Below are positions 1,709 through 62,983 of a stretch of 64,000 nt of DNA, piece after piece. The DNA comes from Patescibacteria group bacterium. GTDB lineage: Bacteria > Patescibacteriota > Minisyncoccia > Phycocordibacterales > UBA9973. How positions within the stretch are numbered: position 1 is the stretch's first letter; every line of letters starts with the position of its first letter. The notes beneath the pieces were generated by a model. The model saw only the letters and a program-made list of their open reading frames with translations, did not search any database and was not told the DNA's origin. The position numbers and the translations under genes are program-made. The stretch covers positions 247,206 through 311,205 of the forward strand of contig JAGWUB010000001.1 in the NCBI GenBank assembly GCA_028868715.1, read 5' to 3'.

Positions 1709-4700
1709 ATGAAAACTCTAAATACAACTGAATTTGATCAAATTGCGCTAAGGCTTGCATCCCCAGAGCAAATCCAAGAATGGTCTTTTGGTGAAGTCAC
1801 AAAACCAGAGACAATAAATTACCGAACTGGTCGCAGTGAACGCGGAGGTCTTTTTGACGAGAAAATCTTTGGTCCAGAGAAAGATTATGAATGTTACTGC
1901 GGAAAATATCGCAGAATTCGTTACAAGGATATTATTTGTGAAAAATGTGGAGTGGAAGTTACTCGTTCTATCGTCAGAAGAGAGCGAATGGGCCATATTG
2001 AGCTCGCTACTCCTGTGTCACATATTTGGTTTTTACGTGGAGTACCTTCTCGTATGAGTATTCTTTTGAATATTTCTGTTTCTGATCTTGAGAAAGTGAT
2101 CTACTTTGCTGGATACATAATTGTTAAAGTTCACGAGGAAGAGAAAAAAACTATAATTTCTAATTTGGAAAAAGAATATAAATCTAAATTAAAAAATTCG
2201 ACCGATGATGACGTCCGCGAAAAATTAAAGAGCCTACTTTCTATTACTAAAAAAGAAATAACAGAAATTTATGAAGGTAAGGTTCTAAATGAAATTTCTT
2301 TTCATCATTATTCTTTAAAATACGGAACTTGCTTTGAAGCTAATATCGGCGCAGAAGCTATTTATTCTATTTTTAAGAATCTAGATTTAAATAAATTAAA
2401 AATTCACACCGAAGCTATGTTGGAGAAGTCTAGTGTAGCTGAAAAAGAAAAATTACAGAAAAGACTTTCCTTAATTCGCGCTATGACTTATGCGGGAATT
2501 CGACCTGAATGGATGTTTTTGACTGTTATTCCCGTTATCCCACCTGTGCTTCGCCCGATGGTGGCGCTAGATGGTGGTAGACATGCAACTTCTGACCTAA
2601 ACGATCTTTATCGTAGAGTTATCAATAGAAATAATCGTTTAAAGAAATTGAAGGAAATAAATGCTCCGGATGTTATTCTTCGAAACGAAAAAAGAATTAT
2701 CCAAGAAGCAGTAGATGCCTTGATCGATAACTCAATTGCTAAACAAAACGACTCTACGGCAATGAGTCAATCCCAGAGACGTCCACTCAAATCTCTTTCT
2801 GATAACCTAAAATCCAAGCAAGGTCTTTTCCGTCAAAACTTACTTGGAAAGCGTGTGGACTATTCAGGTCGTTCAGTTATTGTCGTCGGTCCTGAGCTAA
2901 AGCTTAATCAATGTGGATTGCCGAAACATATGGCGCTGGAACTCTTTAGACCATTTGTAATTTCCAAGATTTTACAAGCTGAACTTGCTTTTAATATTCG
3001 TGGAGCTAACAAACTTATAGAGGAACGTGAAGGAGTTATCTGGGCAATATTGGAAGAAATCATCGAGGGTAAATATGTTCTTCTAAACCGCGCGCCAACC
3101 CTGCACCGTTTAGGTATTCAAGCTTTCAATCCGATTCTAATTGAAGGAAATGCTATTCAAGTACACCCACTAGTCTGTGAAGCTTTCAACGCTGACTTCG
3201 ACGGAGACCAAATGGCTGTCTACGTTCCTCTTTTGGAGGAAGCACAATCTGAAGCAAAGGAATTGATGGCGGCAAACAAAAACTTGCTTAAGCCACAAAA
3301 TGGAGATCCAATCGTTCACCCTAGTAAGGATATAGTGCTTGGAAGTTATTGGATGACCAAAGATATCACTGGAGAAGAAGGAGAAGGAAAATATTTCTCA
3401 AATCCCAACACAGCCATTTTAGCATTTGAATATGGAGTCGTATCTCTCCGAGCTAAAATAAACGTGCTGGCTACTGATCGAGAAAAATACAAAAAATTTA
3501 ATGGAGGAATGTTTGAAACCTCAGTTGGAAAACTTCTTTTCAATAGTATTTTGCCAAATGATTTTTCTTATGTGAATGATGAAATGACTCAAGGAAGACT
3601 ATCCTCACTCTTAGATGAGCTCATTATGCAATACGGCGTAGATGATACCCCTCCAATCTTGGACAAGATTAAAGCTTTCGGCTTTAAGTATTCAACAGTT
3701 TCTGGTACTACTTGGGGATTGGACAATGTCAGTGTGCCTACTCAAAAACCAAAAATTATAGAAAAAAGTAAAATTTTAGAAGAAGAAATTATATCACAAT
3801 GGAGCGACGGTCTGCTTTCAGGGGAAGAAAAATATCAAAAGGTTATTGAAATCTGGGCAAGTGCTAAAAAAGAATTAGAGAAAATTTTGCCAAGTACTCT
3901 TGATATTAATGGATCTACCTATGACCTGTTTACTTCTAAGGCTAGAGGTACCATGACTTCTCTGGTTCAGATGATCGGAATGAAAGGACTTATTCAAAAC
4001 AACCAAGGTAAAACATTGGAATTTCCAATTATTTCTTGTTACCAAGAAGGACTTTCTCCACTCGAATATTTCATAACCACTCACGGAGCTAGAAAAGGAG
4101 CATCAGATACCGCTCTTAATACCGCAAAGGCTGGGTACCTAACTCGAAGATTAGTTGACGTGGCGCAGGACGTGGTTATCACTGAAGAAGACTGTGGCAC
4201 CAAAGAAGGAAAGATAGTCTCAGCTGAAAATATTTCTGGAATTGAAATACCACTTTCAAAAAATATTCGTGGAAGAGTTTTGGCTGGCGATCTAAAAGAT
4301 GAATCTGGTAAAGTTGTCTACAAGAAAGGATTTTTAGTTACTAAAGAAGAAGCTTACAAAATAGAAAAGCAGGGCTTCAAGGAAGTATTTGTTCGTTCTC
4401 CACTTACTTGTCATACAGTGCATGGACTTTGCGTGATGTGTTATGGACTCGATTTGGGGCGAAACCACTTGGTGCAACTAGGTGAAGCTGTCGGGATTAT
4501 TGCGGCTCAAGCCATCGGCGAACCAGGAACCCAGCTTACGCTTCGTACCTTCCACGCTGGAGGTGTCGCCGGTACAGATATCACTACAGGTTTACCACGT
4601 ATTGAAGAAATATTTGAAAGAAGAATTCCTAAAAATCCAGCAATTGTTTCCGAGACAGACGGAGAAGTTATTTCTATCACCTCTAAGGATGGAGAAGAAA

Positions 4701-5317
4701 AGATAATAAAAGTACTTTCTGACACCAAAGCTGATGGTAAGAAAAATGAGATAGAGTATATAGTAGCTTTTCGTAGAATTCCAACAGTAAAAGTTGGTGA
4801 TAAAGTTAAAATGGGTGAACTTCTCACAGATGGTTCCGCAGATATTGCGCAAATATTCAAATTCGGTAATAAGGAATTTGTTGAAAAATATATAATTCGT
4901 GAAATTAATAAAGTTTATGAACTCCAGAACGCATCTATTTCTAGAAAACATACTGAAATAATTGTTCGTCAGATGTTTTCACGCCGAAAAATAAAAGATG
5001 CTGGAGAGACTAATTTCTCTACTGGTGACATCGTGGAACACACTACCTTCATGGAAGAAAATGCTCGCATGTCTGACACTGGTGGCGAAGTCGCTAAGGC
5101 AGAAACCGTGGTTCTAGGTATTACTGAAGTTTCACTGCGTACCAAGAGTTGGCTTTCAGCTGCTTCATTCCAAAACACAAACCGAGTCTTGATTGAAAAT
5201 GCTATCAAAGGCGGAGTAGATTCTCTACGTGGTCTAAAAGAAAATGTCATCATCGGACGATTAATCCCAGCTGGAACTGGATTTAAAAGTAAAGTTTCTT
5301 CCAAAAAAGAGGAATAA
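1709..5317 (+). CDS. rpoC: DNA-directed RNA polymerase beta' subunit
   Basis: 1202 aa with the catalytic [11 protein letters not shown] motif and an N-terminal zinc-binding Cys cluster (CYCGKY...CEKCGVEV). It lies directly downstream of rpoB. Confidence 0.95.
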
Positions 5318-5326
5318 AAAAAGTTT

Positions 5327-7093
5327 ATGAACTCTCCCGTTGATAAAATTAAGGAGAGACTGTCAATCGAAGAAGTAGTCTCTTCTTACATAAAGTTAGA
5401 AAAAGCAGGCGCAAACTTCAAAGCCAAGTGTCCCTTTCATAATGAAAAGACTCCATCGTTTTTTGTGTCGCCAGGGAGGGGAAGCTATTATTGTTTTGGT
5501 TGCAGTGCTTCGGGTGACATCTTTACTTTTGTTGAAGAATTCGAAGGTCTTGATTTTAAAGGCGCCTTAAAACTTTTAGCCAACAAGGCGGGAGTAATAT
5601 TAGAGAACTTTAATCCAAAGGAAGAGAGTGAAAAGGAAAAGATTTATCGGGTAATGGAAGAGGTAACCAAGTTCTTTGAAAATAATCTAAAAGAAAATCA
5701 GGAGGCAGTGGCTTACTTAAAGAGTAGAGGCCTTAATGATGAAAGTATAAAAAATTTCCGTATCGGTTTTATTCCTGAAGCTTGGCGTGACCTGCATGCG
5801 TATCTTACAAAGAAAGGATGGAATGAAGTTGAGATGGAACGTGCTGGTCTGGTCAAAAAAACTGAAAAAGGTTTTTATGATAGGTTTCGTAATCGAATTA
5901 TGTTTCCGATTTCGGACTCCAGCGGACGCGTCATAGCTTTTTCTGGAAGGTTGTTTAAAGATGATGAAAAATCAGCAAAATATTTAAACAGTCCTGATAC
6001 ACCGATTTTTAATAAATCTGCTGTTTTATACGGACTGGATAAAGCCAAAGAATCAATTCGAAAAAATAACTTTTCTATTTTAGTCGAAGGTCAAATGGAT
6101 TTGATATTGTCACATCAGGCTGGTTTTAAAAATACTGTAGCCACTTCTGGCACGGCATTATCTGACGCCACAGTGAGTAAAGAAAATGTAGTCTCCAACC
6201 TAGGCCTCGTACGTAGACTTTCAGAAAATATAGTCTTGGCATTTGATGCTGACAAAGCTGGCTTAAGTGCAACCTTGCGGGCAGGGAAAATTGCTTTATC
6301 ACTTGGCATGGATGTGAAAGTCGCAAACATAGAAGAGGGCATTGACCCCGCAGACTTGATTTCAAAGAACGGGGTGGATGCTTGGCGCGAAGCCATTAGA
6401 GGCTCCAAGCACCTGATAGAGTTTTTGCTTGCCAGAGTATTGAAGGATGCAAAGGAAGACAATCGTAAAGCGGGCAGAGAGATAAAAGATAAAGTACTAC
6501 CTTTTATAGATGCGGTTGATAGCTCTATCGAACAAATGCATTTTATAAAAAAAATATCCGATATTTCGGCAATTCCAGAAGAAGCGCTCAAAGATGATTT
6601 AAAGAAAATACAACAAGAGTTAAAATTTGAAAAACGTGAAATAGATGAGATAAAAAGCACAGGAAGTAAAATATTTAAAAAAGATTATATTGAAAGACAT
6701 TTGCTCGGCATTATCCTTTGGCAGAAAACCATAGCTAGCCCTAGTATTGATATAGATGAGACAATGACAGAGTTAGTTCGCATTTTAAATGTTAAAGAAG
6801 CAATTTTATTAGAAAAAACAACCAACGATAGAGAAGACCTAATTTTTGAAGCAGAAGTTTTCTATGGCGGAGACGAAAAGAATATGAATTTAAAAAAAGA
6901 TGTGAATGAGTTAATGTTAAACTTAGAGGAAGAATATCTAAATGAAGACAGATTTAAAAAAATGCAGGAATTGCATATATATGAAGAAAAACGAGACCTA
7001 GAGAAGGGTAGACAAATATTAAAAGAAATAAATGAGATTAACAACAAAATACAAAATATTAAAAATAGTCGTATAAATACTAAGTTTATCTAA
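5327..7093 (+). CDS. dnaG: DNA primase
   Basis: It has a CHC2 zinc finger ([30 protein letters not shown]) and Toprim-like segments ([19 protein letters not shown]). Confidence 0.9.
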
Positions 7094-11488: not shown

Positions 11489-11564
11489 TGGAGCCGGAAG
11501 AGGGATTCGAACCCACGACCTTCGCTTTACAAAAGCGTTGCTCTACCAACTGAGCTATTCCGGC
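11489..11564 (-). tRNA. tRNA, probably tRNA-Thr (anticodon UGU)
   Basis: The minus-strand cloverleaf has acceptor GCCGGAA/TTCCGGC, a GTTCGAATC T-loop, anticodon loop TTTGTAA and an encoded CCA. Confidence 0.8.
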
Positions 11565-20229: not shown

Positions 20230-20526
20230 AGCCTTGTGTTAGATAGCTACTCTTCGATTTATATCGGAGAGAGGAAAGTCCGAACACATAGCCCTTTGGG
20301 TTAAACGTAGCGGGTAATTCCCGTCGTCCGCAAGGATAGAGGTGCGAACAGAGACGAGCTCCTTTAGTGGAGGTGAAACGGCAAAATCCTTACGCGTGTG
20401 CAAGATCGTGCTCCGACCTCGGTCGGAGAGAATCGCTTGAGTCCTGTAGTAATGCAGGACCTAGACAAATTGCTATCGCTCCGACCTCGGTCGGGGTCAC
20501 AAAATTCGGCTTATAGACACAAGGCT
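20230..20526 (+). ncRNA. rnpB: RNase P RNA (bacterial type, compact)
   Basis: P4 strands GAGAGGAAAGTCCGAACAC and ACAAAATTCGGCTTATA. A GGTGAAACGG motif. The P1 helix closes as AGCCTTGTGT...ACACAAGGCT. Confidence 0.85.
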
Positions 20527-20534
20527 AAAACATG

Positions 20535-21614: not shown

Positions 21615-21688
21615 GGGCCCTTAGCTCATCTGGCTAGAGCGCCTCATTTGCAATGAGGAGGTGGCAGGTTCGAGTCCTGTAGGGTCCA
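21615..21688 (+). tRNA. tRNA-Ala (anticodon UGC)
   Basis: Cloverleaf with acceptor GGGCCCT/AGGGTCC including the G3:U70 Ala identity pair. Anticodon loop TTTGCAA. Confidence 0.88.
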
Positions 21689-21708
21689 CCGAAAAGTTAG
21701 TTATTTTT

Positions 21709-21783
21709 TCCGGGGTAGCTCAGCGGTAGAGCGGTCGCCTGTTAAGCGATTGGTCGTAGGTTCGATCCCTACCCCCGGAGCCA
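21709..21783 (+). tRNA. tRNA-Asn (anticodon GUU)
   Basis: Cloverleaf with acceptor TCCGGGG/CCCCGGA, anticodon loop CTGTTAA, T-loop TTCGATC and an encoded CCA. Confidence 0.88.
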
Positions 21784-32302: not shown

Positions 32303-33799
32303 ATGGAAGGGCTCGATGACAAAAAAAAAGGATCCAACCTGCGTTGGTGGATATTACTTACCGTTATAATTGGAACTTTTTTAGGTCGCCTAGATCAAAC
32401 GATAGTGAACTTGGCTCTGCCAAAAATCATTAATGATTTTGGCATTTCGGTTACCGCGGCTGGATGGATAGCTACAGCTTATATTTTAGCTAATGCTGTT
32501 TTCGTGCCGATTTGGGGTAAATTGGGCGATACTATTGGAAGAAAAAAAGTTTACATTATTGGTTTCAGTATTTTTATTTTCGGTTCTGTCTTGGCGGGAC
32601 TTTCATGGAATCTTTCTTCAATGATTGTCTTTCGGGTGATTCAAGCTATAGCCGGATCAGCTGATTATCCGACAGCCATGGCGATATTAGCCGTGACTTT
32701 CAAAAATGGAAAAGAACGTGCGCAAGCACTCGGCATTTGGTCCTCTTCTTTCGCCGCCGCGGCTGTTTTTGGACCACTTTTAGGTGGTCCTTTGATAGAC
32801 AATTTTGGCTGGCGTTCAGTTTTTCTAATCAATCTTCCAATTGGTATTTTAGGTATCATCATGGCCGTTCGTTTTATCAATGAATCACGTTCAGAACAAA
32901 AAACCACATACTTTGATTGGTGGGGATCGCTTTCATTGGGAGGTATGCTTTCTATGTTGGTGCTCGTTTTAGACAAAGGATTAACTTGGGGTTGGTTTTC
33001 AACCGCAAGTCTAATATGTTACTTTTTGATAATTTTCCTCTTGTGGTTATTTATCAGAATAGAAAAAAATGCCAAAGACCCGATTGTGGATTTGCGTTTT
33101 TTCAAAATTCCTGCTTTTGTCAATACTCTGATTAATAACTTTATTGTTTTTATGGGTATGATTGGCGGAATTTTCTTGATACCTATATTTGCGCAAACGT
33201 TTCTCGGGTATACCGCTACTCAATCAGGATATCTTTTTATTCCGATGGCTGCAGCCTTGATGCTAGCAGCTCCAATAGGAGGCGCACTGACTGGGCGAGT
33301 CCAAGCGCGCTACGTGATTTTTGCCAGTACCTTGGTGGCAGCCATCGGTATTTATTTCTTCTCCTTTCTTGATCCCAAGTCCGGTGCTCTGGCTATAATA
33401 ATTCCGCTTTCGGTCATGGCTTTTGGTCTTGGTTTTGGAATGGCGCAACGAACGAATGTTATTGCTTCCGTAGTAAACCCAAATGAAATCGGCATTGCTT
33501 CTTCAATTTTGGCCCTAGCTCGCAATATTGCTGGCGCTTTTGGAATTGCTATTTTTGGAACAATTTTAACAAACCGAGTTTATACAAACGTAATGTCTAT
33601 AAACAATTTTAGCGTTATTCGTAGTACCAATCCGATTGATATAAGTAAATACGTTGGACTAGTAGAACTAAAAGCTCAAGTCAATGCTTACAACTATGTT
33701 TTTTTGGTTGCATCCATTATAGTTTTTGTCGGAGCCTTTGCGGTGCTCTTTATGAAAATTAAACATGAACGCACGGATATAACTGTGCACGTAGAGTAA
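32303..33799 (+). CDS. MFS drug:H+ antiporter, DHA2 (EmrB/QacA-like, 14 TM helices)
   Basis: Motifs LPKIINDFGISVTAAGWIATAYILANAVFVPIWGKLGDTIGRKKVYIIG and VFRVIQAIAG. 498 aa. Confidence 0.85.
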   Translation: MEGLDDKKKGSNLRWWILLTVIIGTFLGRLDQTIVNLALPKIINDFGISVTAAGWIATAYILANAVFVPIWGKLGDTIGRKKVYIIGFSIFIFGSVLAGLSWNLSSMIVFRVIQAIAGSADYPTAMAILAVTFKNGKERAQALGIWSSSFAAAAVFGPLLGGPLIDNFGWRSVFLINLPIGILGIIMAVRFINESRSEQKTTYFDWWGSLSLGGMLSMLVLVLDKGLTWGWFSTASLICYFLIIFLLWLFIRIEKNAKDPIVDLRFFKIPAFVNTLINNFIVFMGMIGGIFLIPIFAQTFLGYTATQSGYLFIPMAAALMLAAPIGGALTGRVQARYVIFASTLVAAIGIYFFSFLDPKSGALAIIIPLSVMAFGLGFGMAQRTNVIASVVNPNEIGIASSILALARNIAGAFGIAIFGTILTNRVYTNVMSINNFSVIRSTNPIDISKYVGLVELKAQVNAYNYVFLVASIIVFVGAFAVLFMKIKHERTDITVHVE

Positions 33800-49815: not shown

Positions 49816-50214
49816 ATGCGAATAAATTTACAAGGCAAAAATATTGAGTTAACGGAGCCTATCAAAGATTATGTTTTAAAGAGAGTAACTAACTTGGAAA
49901 AATTACTTTCTGGGATTGAAAAAGGGGGAGGGGAAGTAGCAGTCACGTTTGAAGTTGGTAAAAGCACCAAGCATCACAAAGGAACTTCTATTTTTAATGC
50001 TTATTGTTTAATCAATACCAATGGCGAAGAATTTTATTCTAGCGCTGATGAGGAGGATTTATATACCGCGATTGATATAGTTAAAGAAAATCTCTTTAGG
50101 GAAATAAATAAAAACAAAGATCGTAAAAAGACATTGTTTAAACGAGGAGCCATGAGCGTCAAAAAAATGCTCAAAGGTCTTTCCAAGCGAAATCCTTTTA
50201 CTTCTAAGTACTAA
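49816..50214 (+). CDS. hpf: ribosome hibernation-promoting factor / RaiA family
   Basis: MRINLQGKNIELTEPIKDYVLKRVTNLEKLL...EDLYTAIDIVKENLFREINKNKDRKK. Confidence 0.85.
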   Translation: MRINLQGKNIELTEPIKDYVLKRVTNLEKLLSGIEKGGGEVAVTFEVGKSTKHHKGTSIFNAYCLINTNGEEFYSSADEEDLYTAIDIVKENLFREINKNKDRKKTLFKRGAMSVKKMLKGLSKRNPFTSKY

Positions 50215-51107
50215 TTTTTATAATCCATTTCTTTACCTCCCTCGGGGATAATTTTTTCTATAATGAATTGGTTATTTTCTAATTTTGCTTTAGTAATTAT
50301 TATTCTTTTTCCATCCTTAAAGAAGTAAGTTCTAGGCCAAGTGGCATAGGCACGAAATTTATTGTAATTTTTAACCGAGTCGTCAGAAAGATCTATTAAC
50401 CCATCTTCTTTTTTTATTTTAGTACAATAAGTTGCTTTTGTTTCATCTTGTCGAGTTGTTTTAATTGTTCCAGCTATAAATTCCGGTAGAGTTTTTACCA
50501 GAAGCTCACCTCCAAGTTTTATCAATCGCTTGCGAAGTTCTGGGGATTTTTCATCTGGCATTATTTCTGTCTTATCTATAGCAATGATTGGCCCGGAATC
50601 CATTTTGAATTCCATTTGTTGAATAGTTACCCCCGTCTCTGTGTCGCCATTTAAAATAGCAGATTCCACCGGTGAAGCTCCGCGATATTTAGGAAGCAAA
50701 GAATAGTGAAGGTTTATAGAGCCTAGCTTTGGTAGCTTCAGTATATTTTCTGGAATTATTTTTCCGTAAGCTACGACTAAGAAGAGCTCGGGGATATTTT
50801 TGCTTACACGCATATCCTGCTGGTGCAGGATTGCTTTTCTCGGCTCGTCAGCCTGCGAAGAGATCGCAAAAATATCCCCGAGCTCTTCTTTGAGTTTCTC
50901 TGGTTGTATGTATGGAATATTATTTTCCATAGCCCAAACCTTGGCTGGTGGGGGAGTAATGACCATTTTACGCCCCTGTGGGCGGTCAGGAGCAGTTACA
51001 ATAAGACTAGGTATATATCCAGCACTCTTTAGTATTTCCAAAGTCTCACTGGCCACATCTGGAGTACCCCAAAATACAAAATTTAACTTTTTACTATTAT
51101 CTTGCAT
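50211..51107 (-). CDS. fmt: methionyl-tRNA formyltransferase with a short in-frame repeat-derived insertion
   Basis: NFVFWGTPDVASETL and SINLHYSLLPKYRGASPVESAILNGDTETGVTIQ. Confidence 0.9.
   Translation of the reverse strand: MQDNSKKLNFVFWGTPDVASETLEILKSAGYIPSLIVTAPDRPQGRKMVITPPPAKVWAMENNIPYIQPEKLKEELGDIFAISSQADEPRKAILHQQDMRVSKNIPELFLVVAYGKIIPENILKLPKLGSINLHYSLLPKYRGASPVESAILNGDTETGVTIQQMEFKMDSGPIIAIDKTEIMPDEKSPELRKRLIKLGGELLVKTLPEFIAGTIKTTRQDETKATYCTKIKKEDGLIDLSDDSVKNYNKFRAYATWPRTYFFKDGKRIIITKAKLENNQFIIEKIIPEGGKEMDYKN
50800..50880. repeat. degenerate copy of the GC-rich palindromic element, inserted in frame in fmt
   Basis: TCTCGGCTCGTCAGCCTGCGAAGAGA matches the 25-nt core of the def element at 21/22 positions. 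An adjacent palindrome is ATCCTGCTGGTGCAGGAT. It encodes ..SSQADEPRKAILHQQD.. in fmt. Confidence 0.6.
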
Positions 51108-51111
51108 ATTA

Positions 51112-51693
51112 TTACTTAGGAAGTTCTTCTTTCACCTCCTTGGCATGGTCTATAAACAGTATGCCATTTAGGTGGTCGGTTTCGTGTTGGAAAATTTGAG
51201 CGAGCAAACCAGATGCTCCGCGAGTAAATTTTTTACCGTTTTCATCGTAAGCGGTGACAGTGGCTTTTTTTGATCTATTAACTTTTCCATAAAGCCAGCG
51301 GACAGAAAGGCACCCCTCTGGCAACCATTCCTTTTCACGCGAAAGTTTGGAAATTTTTGGATTGATAAACACCATATCTTTCTCCGCAGACTTTCTCAGA
51401 GCGGGGTCGCTATCTGTGCGTGCTCGCACAGCGCTCCCTCTCGGCTCGTCAACCTGCGAGAGACCCCGCCTTGAGAAGTCTGCTCCGAAAATTTTTCCTG
51501 ATACAACAAAAATTCTCAGGCTGTAACCAATCTGTGGAGCAGCTATGGCTACACCATCATGCTGGCTAGAGAGGGCCACAGACATCTCTTTTAATATCTT
51601 TTTTATTTTCGTAGTTTTAATATCTGGCAAAAGTACCTCTTTGGCAACTTTCCGCAAAGTCTTCTCTTTTTGTTGAAGAATTTTTTTTGGCAT
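51112..51693 (-). CDS. def: peptide deformylase carrying a 32-aa in-frame insertion between motifs 1 and 2
   Basis: Motif 1 GVAIAAPQIG, motif 2 EGCLS and motif 3 QHETDHLNG are present. The motif 1 to motif 2 spacing is about twice the usual. Confidence 0.9.
   Translation of the reverse strand: MPKKILQQKEKTLRKVAKEVLLPDIKTTKIKKILKEMSVALSSQHDGVAIAAPQIGYSLRIFVVSGKIFGADFSRRGLSQVDEPRGSAVRARTDSDPALRKSAEKDMVFINPKISKLSREKEWLPEGCLSVRWLYGKVNRSKKATVTAYDENGKKFTRGASGLLAQIFQHETDHLNGILFIDHAKEVKEELPK
51387..51482. repeat. 96-nt GC-rich MITE/RPE-like element with 22-bp terminal inverted repeats, inserted in frame in def
   Basis: CAGACTTTCTCAGAGCGGGGTC ... GACCCCGCCTTGAGAAGTCTG. An internal palindrome is GTGCGTGCTCGCAC. 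The core is TCTCGGCTCGTCAACCTGCGAGAGA. Length is 32 codons. Confidence 0.7.
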
Positions 51694-60875: not shown

Positions 60876-61886
60876 ATGTTAAATCCAGATTTAAAATTAA
60901 ATCCAAAAATTTTCAATGACGATGTCGCGCAAGCACCGATCCGAAAAGGCTTCGGGGAGGGGTTAGTTTTAGCTGGGGATCAGGATAAAAATGTAGTGGC
61001 CCTTTGCGCCGATTTGACCGAGTCCACCCAAATGATTTTTTTTAAAGAAAAGTTTCCAGAGAGATTTGTGGAAATTGGTGTGGCTGAACAAAATCTCGTT
61101 ACGGTTGCTTCTGGGATGGCAGCAATGGGCAAAATTCCTTTTTGTTCTTCTTATGCGATGTTTTCTCCGGGGAGAAATTGGGAACAAATCAGGACAACCA
61201 TAGCTTACAACGACCGACCGGTAAAAATAATTGGTTCACATGCGGGTATTTCTGTCGGACCGGATGGTGGCACACATCAAGCCCTGGAAGACATTGCTCT
61301 CATGCGCGTGGTACCAAACATGGAAGTCATTTCTCCTTGTGATTCAATTGAAGCCAAAAAAGCAACTCAAGCAATTACCAAAACTGGCAAACCAGCATAT
61401 TTACGACTAGCTAGAGAGAAAACTCCCATAGTCACCACAGAAGAAACTCCATTTACGCTTGGCAAGGCCGAAGTTTATTGGATGCCAGATGTGGGCATTC
61501 CTCAGGTAGGAATAATAGTAACTGGTGGGTTGATGCATCGGGCCCTACTCGCTGCTAAAGAATTACAAGACCAAGAGGAGCCACAGCGAATTAAAACAAA
61601 AGTAATGAATCTTTCATGCATCAAGCCGATAGATGTGAAAGCTATTGTGGCTTTAGCAAAAGAATGTAAAGCAATCGTAACTGTGGAGGAGCATCAAGTT
61701 GCTGGTGGAATGGGATCGGTAGTAGCAGAGGTACTCTCGCAAAATTTTCCGGTGCCGATGGAATTTGTCGGCGTGCAAGATAAGTTTGGGCAAAGCGGTA
61801 CACCAGACGAACTCATAGAACATTATGGTATGGGAAAAAATTCTATCAAAGAAGCGGTGAGGAAAGTGCTAAAACGAAAAATCTAG
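60876..61886 (+). CDS. tkt: transketolase, C-terminal (pyrimidine-binding) subunit
   Basis: FVEIGVAEQNLVTVASGMAAMG...SHAGISVGPDGGTHQALEDIALMR. Confidence 0.85.
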   Translation: MLNPDLKLNPKIFNDDVAQAPIRKGFGEGLVLAGDQDKNVVALCADLTESTQMIFFKEKFPERFVEIGVAEQNLVTVASGMAAMGKIPFCSSYAMFSPGRNWEQIRTTIAYNDRPVKIIGSHAGISVGPDGGTHQALEDIALMRVVPNMEVISPCDSIEAKKATQAITKTGKPAYLRLAREKTPIVTTEETPFTLGKAEVYWMPDVGIPQVGIIVTGGLMHRALLAAKELQDQEEPQRIKTKVMNLSCIKPIDVKAIVALAKECKAIVTVEEHQVAGGMGSVVAEVLSQNFPVPMEFVGVQDKFGQSGTPDELIEHYGMGKNSIKEAVRKVLKRKI

Positions 61887-61985
61887 GAAAGAGTTTTTAT
61901 AAAGCAATCTATCTGGCGTTGCTACGCCAGCGAACCTGCTCGGGCCGACGCCCTTGCGCAAGACTTTCTAAAAACTCTTTCCTAG
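61884..61985. mobile_element. 102-nt GC-rich MITE-like palindromic element between convergent tkt and pfkB. It has perfect 17-bp terminal inverted repeats.
   Basis: CTAGGAAAGAGTTTTTA ... TAAAAACTCTTTCCTAG. Internal hairpins are CTGGCG-TTGCTA-CGCCAG and GGGC-CGAC-GCCC. The two CTAG ends supply the TAG stop codons of both flanking genes. Confidence 0.65.
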
Positions 61986-62983
61986 ATCCTATTGGCCTTG
62001 TAGTTTGCAGGTGCGTTTTTTAGATATTCCTCTAGCTTTTCTCTGGATAAAAGTCCTGCTTGAGCACCGACTTTTTGCACTACAGACATAGAATTTACTG
62101 GCCCCCAAGCAAATGCTTCTAGAGGAGATTTTCCCAGAGCGAGTCCTGCTGTAATAGTGGAAGAAAAAGCATCTCCGGCACCAGTGCGCTCTAGTGGTGG
62201 AGCGATGTCAGGATATATTGGGATTTTCCATAGCTCATCATTTAAATATAAATATGCTCCGTTTGGCCCATCGCTAATACAAACTATTTTTGGTCCGAGA
62301 GCCATTAAGCCTTTTGATAAAGTAAGCACGTCTTTGCCTTCAATTCCCAAGATTTTTTCGGCTTCTTCCAGATTGCAGAAAAATATTTCTGTTCGTGCAT
62401 ATATTTCTTTTAATTTTTCTGCACCAAATTTTATTTGAAATGTTCCCGGCTGGAAAGCTAGCTTGGTTTCTGGGTGATTCTTTAAAAATTCTATTATAGC
62501 CAAATGATAGGGCAGGGAATGCTCTGCCAAAGAACTCAAGTAAATCCAGGATATTTTAGGTAATTTTGGAAGTTTGTATTCAAATTCCGTGTGTTTGATT
62601 AAAATTGTTCGATCAATATCGTACCACAAAACATAGTGGTAATTTGTAATTTTGTCTTTTTCAATTGCTATGTATTCTGTCGTTACTTTTTCATTTTTTA
62701 ATGACTCTAAGCAATCATTGCCATGTTTATCATTTCCAATACTGGCCACGAGTCCGACGTTTAGTCCTAGGCGTGAAGCTGAGACTGCCGCATTTGGGCT
62801 ATTGCCAACTGCTGGTACCACGGTTACAGATTCATAGGGAACTTTATCTCCAAAACGAAAACAAAGTTCACACGCATCTGTATCTATTCGGCAATGTACG
62901 TGGGCATCGTTTAATTTTATAAATGCATCTATGACAATGTCTCCAATTGCCAAAAGATCTATTTCACCCTCTTTTTCGTTCAT
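61982..62983 (-). CDS. PfkB-family carbohydrate kinase (ribokinase-like)
   Basis: C-terminal TGAGDAF motif. An N-terminal GG pattern. Confidence 0.75.
   Translation of the reverse strand: MNEKEGEIDLLAIGDIVIDAFIKLNDAHVHCRIDTDACELCFRFGDKVPYESVTVVPAVGNSPNAAVSASRLGLNVGLVASIGNDKHGNDCLESLKNEKVTTEYIAIEKDKITNYHYVLWYDIDRTILIKHTEFEYKLPKLPKISWIYLSSLAEHSLPYHLAIIEFLKNHPETKLAFQPGTFQIKFGAEKLKEIYARTEIFFCNLEEAEKILGIEGKDVLTLSKGLMALGPKIVCISDGPNGAYLYLNDELWKIPIYPDIAPPLERTGAGDAFSSTITAGLALGKSPLEAFAWGPVNSMSVVQKVGAQAGLLSREKLEEYLKNAPANYKANRI

Follow-up and report, generated by a model that had tools for sequence, protein, structure and literature searches.

The stretch analysed here, referred to as the window, comprises 64,000 nucleotides of a Patescibacteria group bacterium (assembly GCA_028868715.1, contig JAGWUB010000001.1, positions 247,206 to 311,205). 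A palindrome of 107 bp (61881-61987) lies in it between two convergent genes, tktC on the + strand and pfkB on the - strand. The analysis of this palindrome and its relatives indicated that it quite probably belongs to a family of dispersed, small (~85-135 bp), non-autonomous palindromic repeats of Paceibacteria (Patescibacteria, candidate phyla radiation (CPR)) and was inserted at overlapping stop codons of the two genes. Full-text literature searches revealed no description of such elements in CPR, and the family is apparently undescribed. We consider the family itself to be the main interest of this work, as it appears to be a system in Patescibacteria resembling the Rickettsia palindromic elements (RPEs). 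The original prediction, made from the letters of the window, had described an intergenic element similar to a miniature inverted-repeat transposable element (MITE); its observation was confirmed, and its interpretation was borne out in part.

The outer inverted repeat of the junction element consists of a left arm at 61881-61904 (ATCTAGGAAAGAGTTTTTATAAAG) and a right arm at 61964-61987 (CTTTCTAAAAACTCTTTCCTAGAT). The arms are 24 nt each, are complementary at 23 of 24 positions (96%), and are separated by 59 nt. The perfect 17-bp terminal repeats predicted earlier are present within them (CTAGGAAAGAGTTTTTA at 61883-61899 and TAAAAACTCTTTCCTAG at 61969-61985), the start given at that time being off by one. 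The complete layout reads AAA-ATC-TAG, GAAAGAGTTTTTATAAAG, the 59-nt core, CTTTCTAAAAACTCTTTC and CTA-GAT-CCT. The description of a GC-rich element of 102 nt applies to the core with its 63% GC, but not to the arms, which have just 25% (37% in the window), and the inverted repeat is longer than had been claimed. The core (61905-61963) has the layout of a three-way junction and belongs to type IIb of the family. It contains two hairpins, P2 at 61913-61930 (CTGGCGT-TGCT-ACGCCAG, with a 7-bp stem and a TGCT loop) and P3, which together with its 5' CTC spans 61939-61953 (CTC-GGGC-CGAC-GCCC) and represents the family signature CTC-N4-CGNC-N4'. The P3 hairpin proper, GGGC-CGAC-GCCC, occupies 61942-61953 and has 4 bp and the loop CGAC. 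As had been predicted, both internal hairpins are perfect. The folding energy was -48.4 kcal/mol for the + strand (z -6.9) and -56.7 kcal/mol for the - strand (z -8.1), and none of 200 shuffled sequences was equally stable on either strand.

Further copies were searched for in the window and in 2.2 Mb of DNA from relatives, which consisted of 80 species-level loci around pfkB and 120 metagenome contigs containing a 21-nt core pattern (all labelled L###). Since RNAalifold recovered only P3 from a mixed MAFFT alignment, an explicit descriptor, CTC-N4-CGNC-N4' plus an outer stem, was used instead of a covariance model in a strict and a relaxed version. The strict scan gave 13 matches versus 0 in shuffled sequence, and the scan for the signature CTC-N4-CGNC-N4' gave 28 versus 4. 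The relaxed scan detected 128 copies in the 2.2 Mb of related Paceibacteria DNA. The 21-nt core pattern matched at least 120 metagenome contigs and none of the viral contigs.

Three copies were found in the window, at the tkt/pfkB junction, in def and in fmt, all with the core in the same orientation. The def copy (51387-51485, + strand, 99 nt, type IIa) lies in frame in def (51112-51693, - strand) and encodes ADFSRRGLSQVDEPRGSAVRARTDSDPALRKSA, a stretch of 33 residues that look extra; def of the relatives L087-L089 does not have the element. The fmt copy (50779-50890, + strand) emerged when the whole window was searched for inverted repeats; its arms are perfect over 25 bp, and it is in frame in fmt (50211-51107, - strand). 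Most of 120 Paceibacteria Fmt homologues contain an element at this site, a few do not (274-275 aa), and the site is also empty in L087. The occupants of the fmt site encode several versions of the peptide, the opposite-strand reading among them.

The kinship of the junction and def elements, proposed in the original prediction, proved to be true, but through another sequence than the one named there. The two elements have a core in common in the same orientation (CTATCTG-N4-TGCT-N4-CAGCG..CC..CTCGG..CG.C..CC.TGCG), which has 2 exact matches versus 0.22 expected. The 9-mer AGACTTTCT put forward as the shared motif is at chance level: its 2 matches compare with 0.9 expected, 24 of 100 shuffles reach 2, and it stands at non-homologous positions in the two elements.

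Several subfamilies can be distinguished, of which types I, IIa and IIb are the best defined. The consensus of type I is ...CTTTT-NNN-GGTAC-[P2]-TGAAGTT-CTCGGCTCGTCAGCCTCG-AAACCCC..., that of type IIa, represented by the def copy, is GGGGTCGCTGTCT-[P2]-AGCGCTGCCT-CTCGGCTCGTCAGCCTGCGAGACACCCC, and that of type IIb, represented by the tkt/pfkB copy, is TTTTTATAAAGCAATCTATCT-[P2]-AGCGAACTT-CTCGG...TGCGAAAGGCTTTTTAAAAA. Other type IIb copies also have the inner 11 nt of the left arm of the junction element, TTTTTATAAAG. One of these is at the unrelated locus L103, where identity to the window copy is 85% over the inner arms and the core and 81% over the core alone.

By genomic context, the 128 copies were assigned to tandem spacers (48), convergent spacers (28), divergent spacers (10), the interior of long open reading frames (ORFs; 30) and contig edges (12). 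Convergent spacers are enriched, as they hold 28 of the 86 intergenic copies versus a background of 13-17% (p 3e-4 to 3e-6). Both orientations relative to the flanking or host genes occur, with counts of 33/15 for tandem spacers and 18/12 for copies within ORFs. Going by the ORFs, 23% of the copies are read in frame as parts of unrelated proteins, and Pfam confirmed Def, Fmt, TsaD, Tgt, RecG, UvrD and Dus as hosts. The peptides encoded by the element were matched by no model of Pfam or NCBIfam (NCBIfam to E<=10). In L121, an ORF of 1048 aa for a UvrD/PcrA-like helicase (3585-6731, - strand) contains an intein-like insert (CLVKG...THNFIANGIVTHNC) followed by an in-frame palindromic element.

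The extent of the inserted unit was deduced from the arms. For 68 type I copies at 50 sites, the identity of the arms between non-orthologous copies was 0.86 beside the core and fell smoothly to random by ~27-30 nt. Young copies, three in L193 and two in L148, have the full arms (26 nt) in common. All subfamilies have the termini GAATTACGAAAC(TC)...GTTTCGTAATTC, with total lengths of 112-113 or 132-135 nt; members of the family measure 85-135 bp and have no ORF of their own. Pairs of filled and empty sites were found in L148/L099, L126/L200 and L138, L133/L179, L175/L199, and L097/L162, and the indel in them corresponds to the whole palindrome, arms included. The decay of the arms, the shared termini and the filled/empty alignments together indicate that the arms belong to the element and that the complete palindromic unit inserts. 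With a dispersed family, filled and empty sites, and terminal inverted repeats shared by young copies, the element is indeed MITE-like in kind, as had been predicted.

The window copy itself retains just the inner shared arm, TTTTTATAAAG. It should be noted that the outer arm motif AAACTCTTTCCTAG at 61974-61985 closely resembles (GAATTACG)AAACTCTTTCTAGG, a subterminal motif in the left arm of full-length copies (L186:5047-5085), with its sense relative to the core inverted in comparison with these copies. Where two termini were separated by more than 200 nt, they represented separate elements or, in L146, half-elements. There, a left and a right half (733-800 and 1705-1750, with the termini GAATTACGAAAC and GTTTCGTAATTC) stand around a 295-aa YceG/MltG-like host gene, and they may be the result of a rearrangement between two copies.

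The ORF and Pfam domains identify tktC (60876-61886, + strand) as the gene of the C-terminal subunit of transketolase and pfkB (61982-62983, - strand) as the gene of a pfkB-family carbohydrate kinase. In agreement with the original prediction, the ORF coordinates place the TAG stop of tktC (61884-61886) in the left arm and the stop of pfkB, seen as CTA at 61982-61984, in the right arm. Both genes finish with ATC-TAG (Ile-stop) at mirrored positions of the stem, the last Ile codon and the stop occupying 61881-61886 for tktC and, on the - strand, 61982-61987 for pfkB. The products of pfkB and fmt are both 100% identical to proteins of a metagenome-assembled genome of Patescibacteria, and hundreds of homologues with 55-83% identity were found in Nomurabacteria and Paceibacterota. 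The comparison with 120 pfkB homologues showed that the C-terminus ...YKANRI-stop of pfkB is like the endings ...KKI-stop or ...KKIN-stop that are the norm among them. The tktC gene ends with RKI-stop in the window, RKN-stop in L004 and RKM-stop in L006 at equal length. The idea that an insertion truncated or extended both genes is therefore not supported. The wording that the element "donates" the stops is likewise too strong, as both C-termini are native and the stops abut or overlap by 4 nt in relatives. Judged from these alignments, neither gene of the window is remodelled, and both C-termini appear to be of native length.

The orthologous tkt/pfkB junctions were compared as well. The convergent order of the two genes is conserved among relatives and the spacer is variable. 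The stops abut, or the genes overlap by 4 nt, in L007, L014 (TTAA), L016, L032 (CTAG), L163 and others. Plain, terminator-like perfect palindromes with no core occupy the junction in L020, L047 and L084, whereas copies of the family belonging to other subtypes are present in L011, L012, L024, L043, L140 and L158 (type I) and in L058 (type II). Unrelated inserts were also seen: L005/L006 have a Y1 transposase gene, and L004 and L009 have GC-rich spacers longer than 500 bp. These spacers (534 bp at L004:11000-11533 and 595 nt in L009) have ~50% GC in AT-rich genomes and look highly structured; an Rfam search with the 534-bp spacer of L004 gave no match, and the two spacers could be another inserted element or RNA. 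In the closest pfkB relatives, L002 and L003 (83% identity), both independent assemblies are interrupted at the pfkB stop or no more than 4 nt past it, which is the expected effect of a repeat at the junction.

At several of the junctions occupied by the family, the stops are placed symmetrically within the arms: at -3/-3 nt in L011, -12/-12 in L043, -16/-16 in L158 and -6/-6 in the window. The element may have gone into, or alongside, an overlap of the stops that formed the palindrome AAA-ATCTAGAT-CC, and CTAG would have been duplicated in the process; the empty allele would then be expected to read AAAATCTAGATCC. Alternatively, arm-to-arm correction (quasipalindrome template switching) may have lengthened the stem over the weakly constrained last codon and the stop of both genes. 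Either process would account for the ATC-TAG ends of both genes in the arms. In L043 and L158, tktC and pfkB both close with identical codons for RKL-stop; that such unusual terminal codons match between the two sides supports arm-to-arm correction at least at these two loci. The mirrored stops would then be a by-product of insertion at, or growth over, overlapping stops, and so they provide no evidence of gene remodelling.

The core is the most conserved part of the element. All copies have the 7-bp hairpin P2 with a TGCT loop followed by P3 of the form CTCGG-NN-CGNC-NN-CC, in a core of ~60 nt. In a gap-free alignment of 30 type II copies, P2 was paired at 96.7% and P3 at 99%. Five of the seven P2 pairs were changed on both sides in 11-19 sequences, with zero one-sided changes and zero G-U pairs, and the flanks were almost invariant. 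At least 20 different sequences of the P2 helix were counted. Its inner 5 bp (alignment columns 37-41/46-50, window 61915-61919/61924-61928) are wholly different between copies, even at the orthologous tsaD, tgt, uvrD and fmt sites.

Such a core might be expected of a selected structured RNA, either a cis-acting 3'-end module or a small non-coding RNA, and not of mobile DNA; host selection would then keep the three-way junction, and the dispersal would be old or secondary. We regard this explanation as unlikely. It draws on the near-invariance of the core across species with proteins just 55-80% identical, on the covariation of P2 and P3, on the enrichment at convergent gene ends, where copies often abut stop codons, and on the more stable folding of one strand. 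However, no Rfam family matched even at E<=10: the window and both the junction and def elements gave only chance-level miRNA and snoRNA matches in Rfam 15, far below the gathering threshold, the permissive cut-off included. Copies occur in both orientations and 23% of them are read through in unrelated proteins. The covariation of P2 is of the Watson-Crick type only, with no G-U intermediates, as would be expected of a DNA palindrome, or of a constraint acting on two strands, more than of an RNA of one strand. The polymorphism of filled and empty sites and the shared terminal repeats also point to insertion.

The difference between the strands amounted to a more stable reverse complement (P3-to-P2 sense) in 114 of 125 distinct copies, with means of -46.4 versus -41.0 kcal/mol, and it may reflect a real asymmetry or an artefact of the loop energies. 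An asymmetry between G-U and A-C pairs was considered for telling RNA from DNA and was dropped, as the folding program biases it. Both strands were also checked by eye for a hammerhead or twister core, and the reverse-strand sequence CUGACGAG turned out to be just the P3 hairpin.

Another explanation, also improbable in our view, is an element of the repetitive extragenic palindrome (REP) type or of the type of REP doublets forming hairpins (REPIN), moved as single-stranded DNA (ssDNA) by a Y1 tyrosine transposase, either a REP-associated tyrosine transposase (RAYT) or an IS200/IS605-like one, which would read P2, P3 and the conserved flanks. HUH/Y1 enzymes that read structures recognise a conserved loop on a stem whose sequence is free to vary, bordered by conserved flanks, and the family follows this very pattern. 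A Y1_Tnp gene (PF01797) is situated precisely at the tkt/pfkB junction in L005/L006 and has a homologue in L029. The distribution of the copies also matches that reported for REPs, which occur in the gaps of convergent or unidirectional ORFs and in some cases inside genes (PMC3733652). Nevertheless, the hairpin that flanks the Y1 gene is another one, of 17 nt (CATAGGAAACTCCTATG), which is outside the palindromic family, and no Y1 homologue was found in the window or beside family copies. The family also has no terminal GTAG or CGTC tag, and its long terminal inverted repeats and 60-nt core are unlike REPs of 20-40 bp. As for the Y1 gene (IS200/IS605 or RAYT-like; L005:5863-6504 and L006:3498-4139), two inverted copies of CATAGGAAACTCCTATG stand around it, and a solitary CATAGGAAACTCCTATG hairpin fills the 14-nt junction spacer of L029 (related coordinates are L029:9129 and L022:6065). 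The gene and these hairpins look like a separate system of the REP/RAYT type in the same clade.

It is very unlikely that the arms are foreign to the element, i.e., that a short core entered a pre-existing terminator palindrome or produced an inverted target duplication, with the stops as the original flank. The idea that the arms are specific to the locus or derived from the target had come from two L011 copies with identical 62-nt cores and apparently unrelated arms. The palindromes with no core at the junction of L020, L047 and L084 are in line with it, as are the net gains of 15 aa for def and 24 aa for fmt, which are smaller than the element. The idea was overturned by the gradual decay of arm similarity over ~27 nt, the match of young copies over full 26-nt arms, the same termini in all subfamilies, and the empty sites, from which the arms are absent as well as the core; for the family, it is largely refuted. 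Finally, a locally evolved bidirectional intrinsic terminator with no kinship to a repeat family is hardly credible, in spite of the position at a convergent junction, the very stable hairpin on both strands and the U-rich tail on the pfkB side, since the element is homologous to dispersed copies, intragenic ones included, has no U-tract on the tktC side and is not called by a simple terminator scan.

The stem is followed on the - strand (pfkB side) by the U-rich UUUUCGUUUU and on the + strand (tktC side) by CCUAUUGG, which has no U-tract. The terminator consensus scan does not call the window element because its loop is long. A terminator role, bidirectional in the original prediction, is plausible on the pfkB side but is not supported on the tktC side, and stable copies are also present inside essential genes. 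The hairpin may be used as a terminator or as a structure of the 3' end, a role more credible for pfkB than for tktC. Equally stable copies inside essential genes in both orientations indicate that the family is not an efficient obligatory terminator.

Returning to a family of inserted palindromic repeats, the reading that we prefer, several points weigh against it. The census is limited by the choice of loci, for which either homology to pfkB or a match to the core pattern was required, and the ORF calls are crude. The core is more conserved than the arms and is nearly invariant at the orthologous fmt, tsaD, tgt and uvrD sites, with just P2 changing; this fits purifying selection or gene conversion among copies better than passive decay of junk or selfish DNA. 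A possible target duplication of 7 bp (TTGTAAT, present twice) was seen at the empty site of L099 and none was clear in the other pairs, the flanks of which have diverged (75-85% identity). The 2.2 Mb yielded no transposase or autonomous partner with the same termini, public collections not having been searched for one. The fmt and tkt/pfkB sites hold different subtypes and orientations across species, and a terminator role is weak for the reasons given above. At the fmt site of various species (window 50779-50890, L088:4946-5057, L089:3403-3514 and L090:297-412), different subfamilies stand in both orientations, and this mixture implies that elements inserted repeatedly at a site already filled, that they were inverted, or that the core was replaced by gene conversion.

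A mobile palindromic family could be maintained in the following way. It would persist as selfish DNA. Being poor in stops and rich in GC, the core allows read-through within coding sequence, and a copy at the end of a gene would add just a stable hairpin. The fast-drifting arms may be kept complementary by quasipalindrome correction or by selection for the hairpin. We tentatively propose, as a possibility that stops short of being probable, that the family is a class-wide (Paceibacteria) CPR counterpart of RPEs. Its core, with the hypervariable P2 helix that always keeps Watson-Crick pairing, would not be decaying junk but would be maintained by selection as the recognition structure of a mobilisation or gene-conversion machinery specific for ssDNA or for structure, or else as an RNA 3'-end module acting on two strands. 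Under the same tentative proposal, the elements would add segments of 25-35 residues to Fmt, Def, TsaD, Tgt, RecG, UvrD and Dus and would cap convergent genes.

The genomes of CPR/Patescibacteria are regarded as streamlined and poor in repeats. If our proposal is true, the family would represent a second, independent RPE phenomenon, with in-frame palindromes in essential genes of translation, tRNA modification and repair as well as on convergent stops. It would also be a practical issue for annotation, as it would leave unexplained inserts in conserved proteins and contigs that end at the junction, like those of L002 and L003. Moreover, it would offer a natural system for studying how perfect palindromes stay perfect during sequence drift.

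Some other features of the window were recorded. An imperfect 30-nt inverted repeat (33239-33351, 73% complementary, 53-nt spacer) is GC-rich, lies in sequence that looks coding and does not contain the core motif of the family. The window also contains a class A bacterial RNase P RNA (20231-20529), which is short at 299 nt in comparison with the 367 positions of the model, and three tRNA genes (11492-11564 and 21615-21780).

The family was finally compared with known systems. Like a bidirectional terminator, the junction element is a perfect palindrome that fills the spacer between two stops, and plain versions of this kind occupy the junction in L020, L047 and L084. It differs in having a structured core of 59 nt instead of a loop of 3-8 nt, a U-tract on one side, and homologous intragenic copies.

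Bacterial MITEs (Correia elements, ERIC and the terminator-like SPRITE of pneumococci, for example) can fold into hairpins when transcribed, and a terminator-like action is possible for them (PMC10969869). The family resembles them in being small, non-coding and multicopy, with terminal inverted repeats and insertion polymorphism. Unlike them, it has no parent insertion sequence identified in the 2.2 Mb and no identified target-site duplication, and its interior, not its termini, is the most conserved part.

REPs are short palindromic repeats of 20-40 bp that have a conserved, unpaired GTAG or CGTC tag at one of their ends, located mostly between convergent or unidirectional ORFs and in some cases inside genes (PMC3733652). 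The family is similar to REPs and REPINs in its placement, its long hairpins, and its stems that vary while the structure is kept (PMC3733652). However, it does not have the terminal GTAG/CGTC tag; P2 is preceded by CTAT or CTGT, and CGTC appears only as the loop of P3. Its unit, in which terminal inverted repeats enclose a unique core, is single and not a dimer of 20-40-bp REPs. There is also no cognate RAYT flanked by repeats of the family, as the Y1 genes of L005/L006 and L029 are flanked by CATAGGAAACTCCTATG.

RPEs are palindromic repeats of ~100-150 bp with long hairpins, inserted in frame in housekeeping genes and with no known dedicated transposase (PMC10969869; PMC3733652). The family shares with them its dispersal in a small AT-rich genome, its in-frame position in unrelated housekeeping genes, to which it adds a peptide segment, and its conservation at orthologous sites. 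The in-frame insertion into many unrelated ORFs that is typical of RPEs was found here too, 30 of the 128 copies being inside long ORFs. The host, however, is a member of Patescibacteria, and no sequence kinship was detected when the peptides were compared with NCBIfam and Pfam, so the family is an analogue of RPEs and not a member of them. It also differs from RPEs in being conserved at a two-hairpin core of ~60 nt, around which the arms decay yet stay complementary, and in that many of the Paceibacteria copies are situated exactly at gene ends, with the stops inside their arms.

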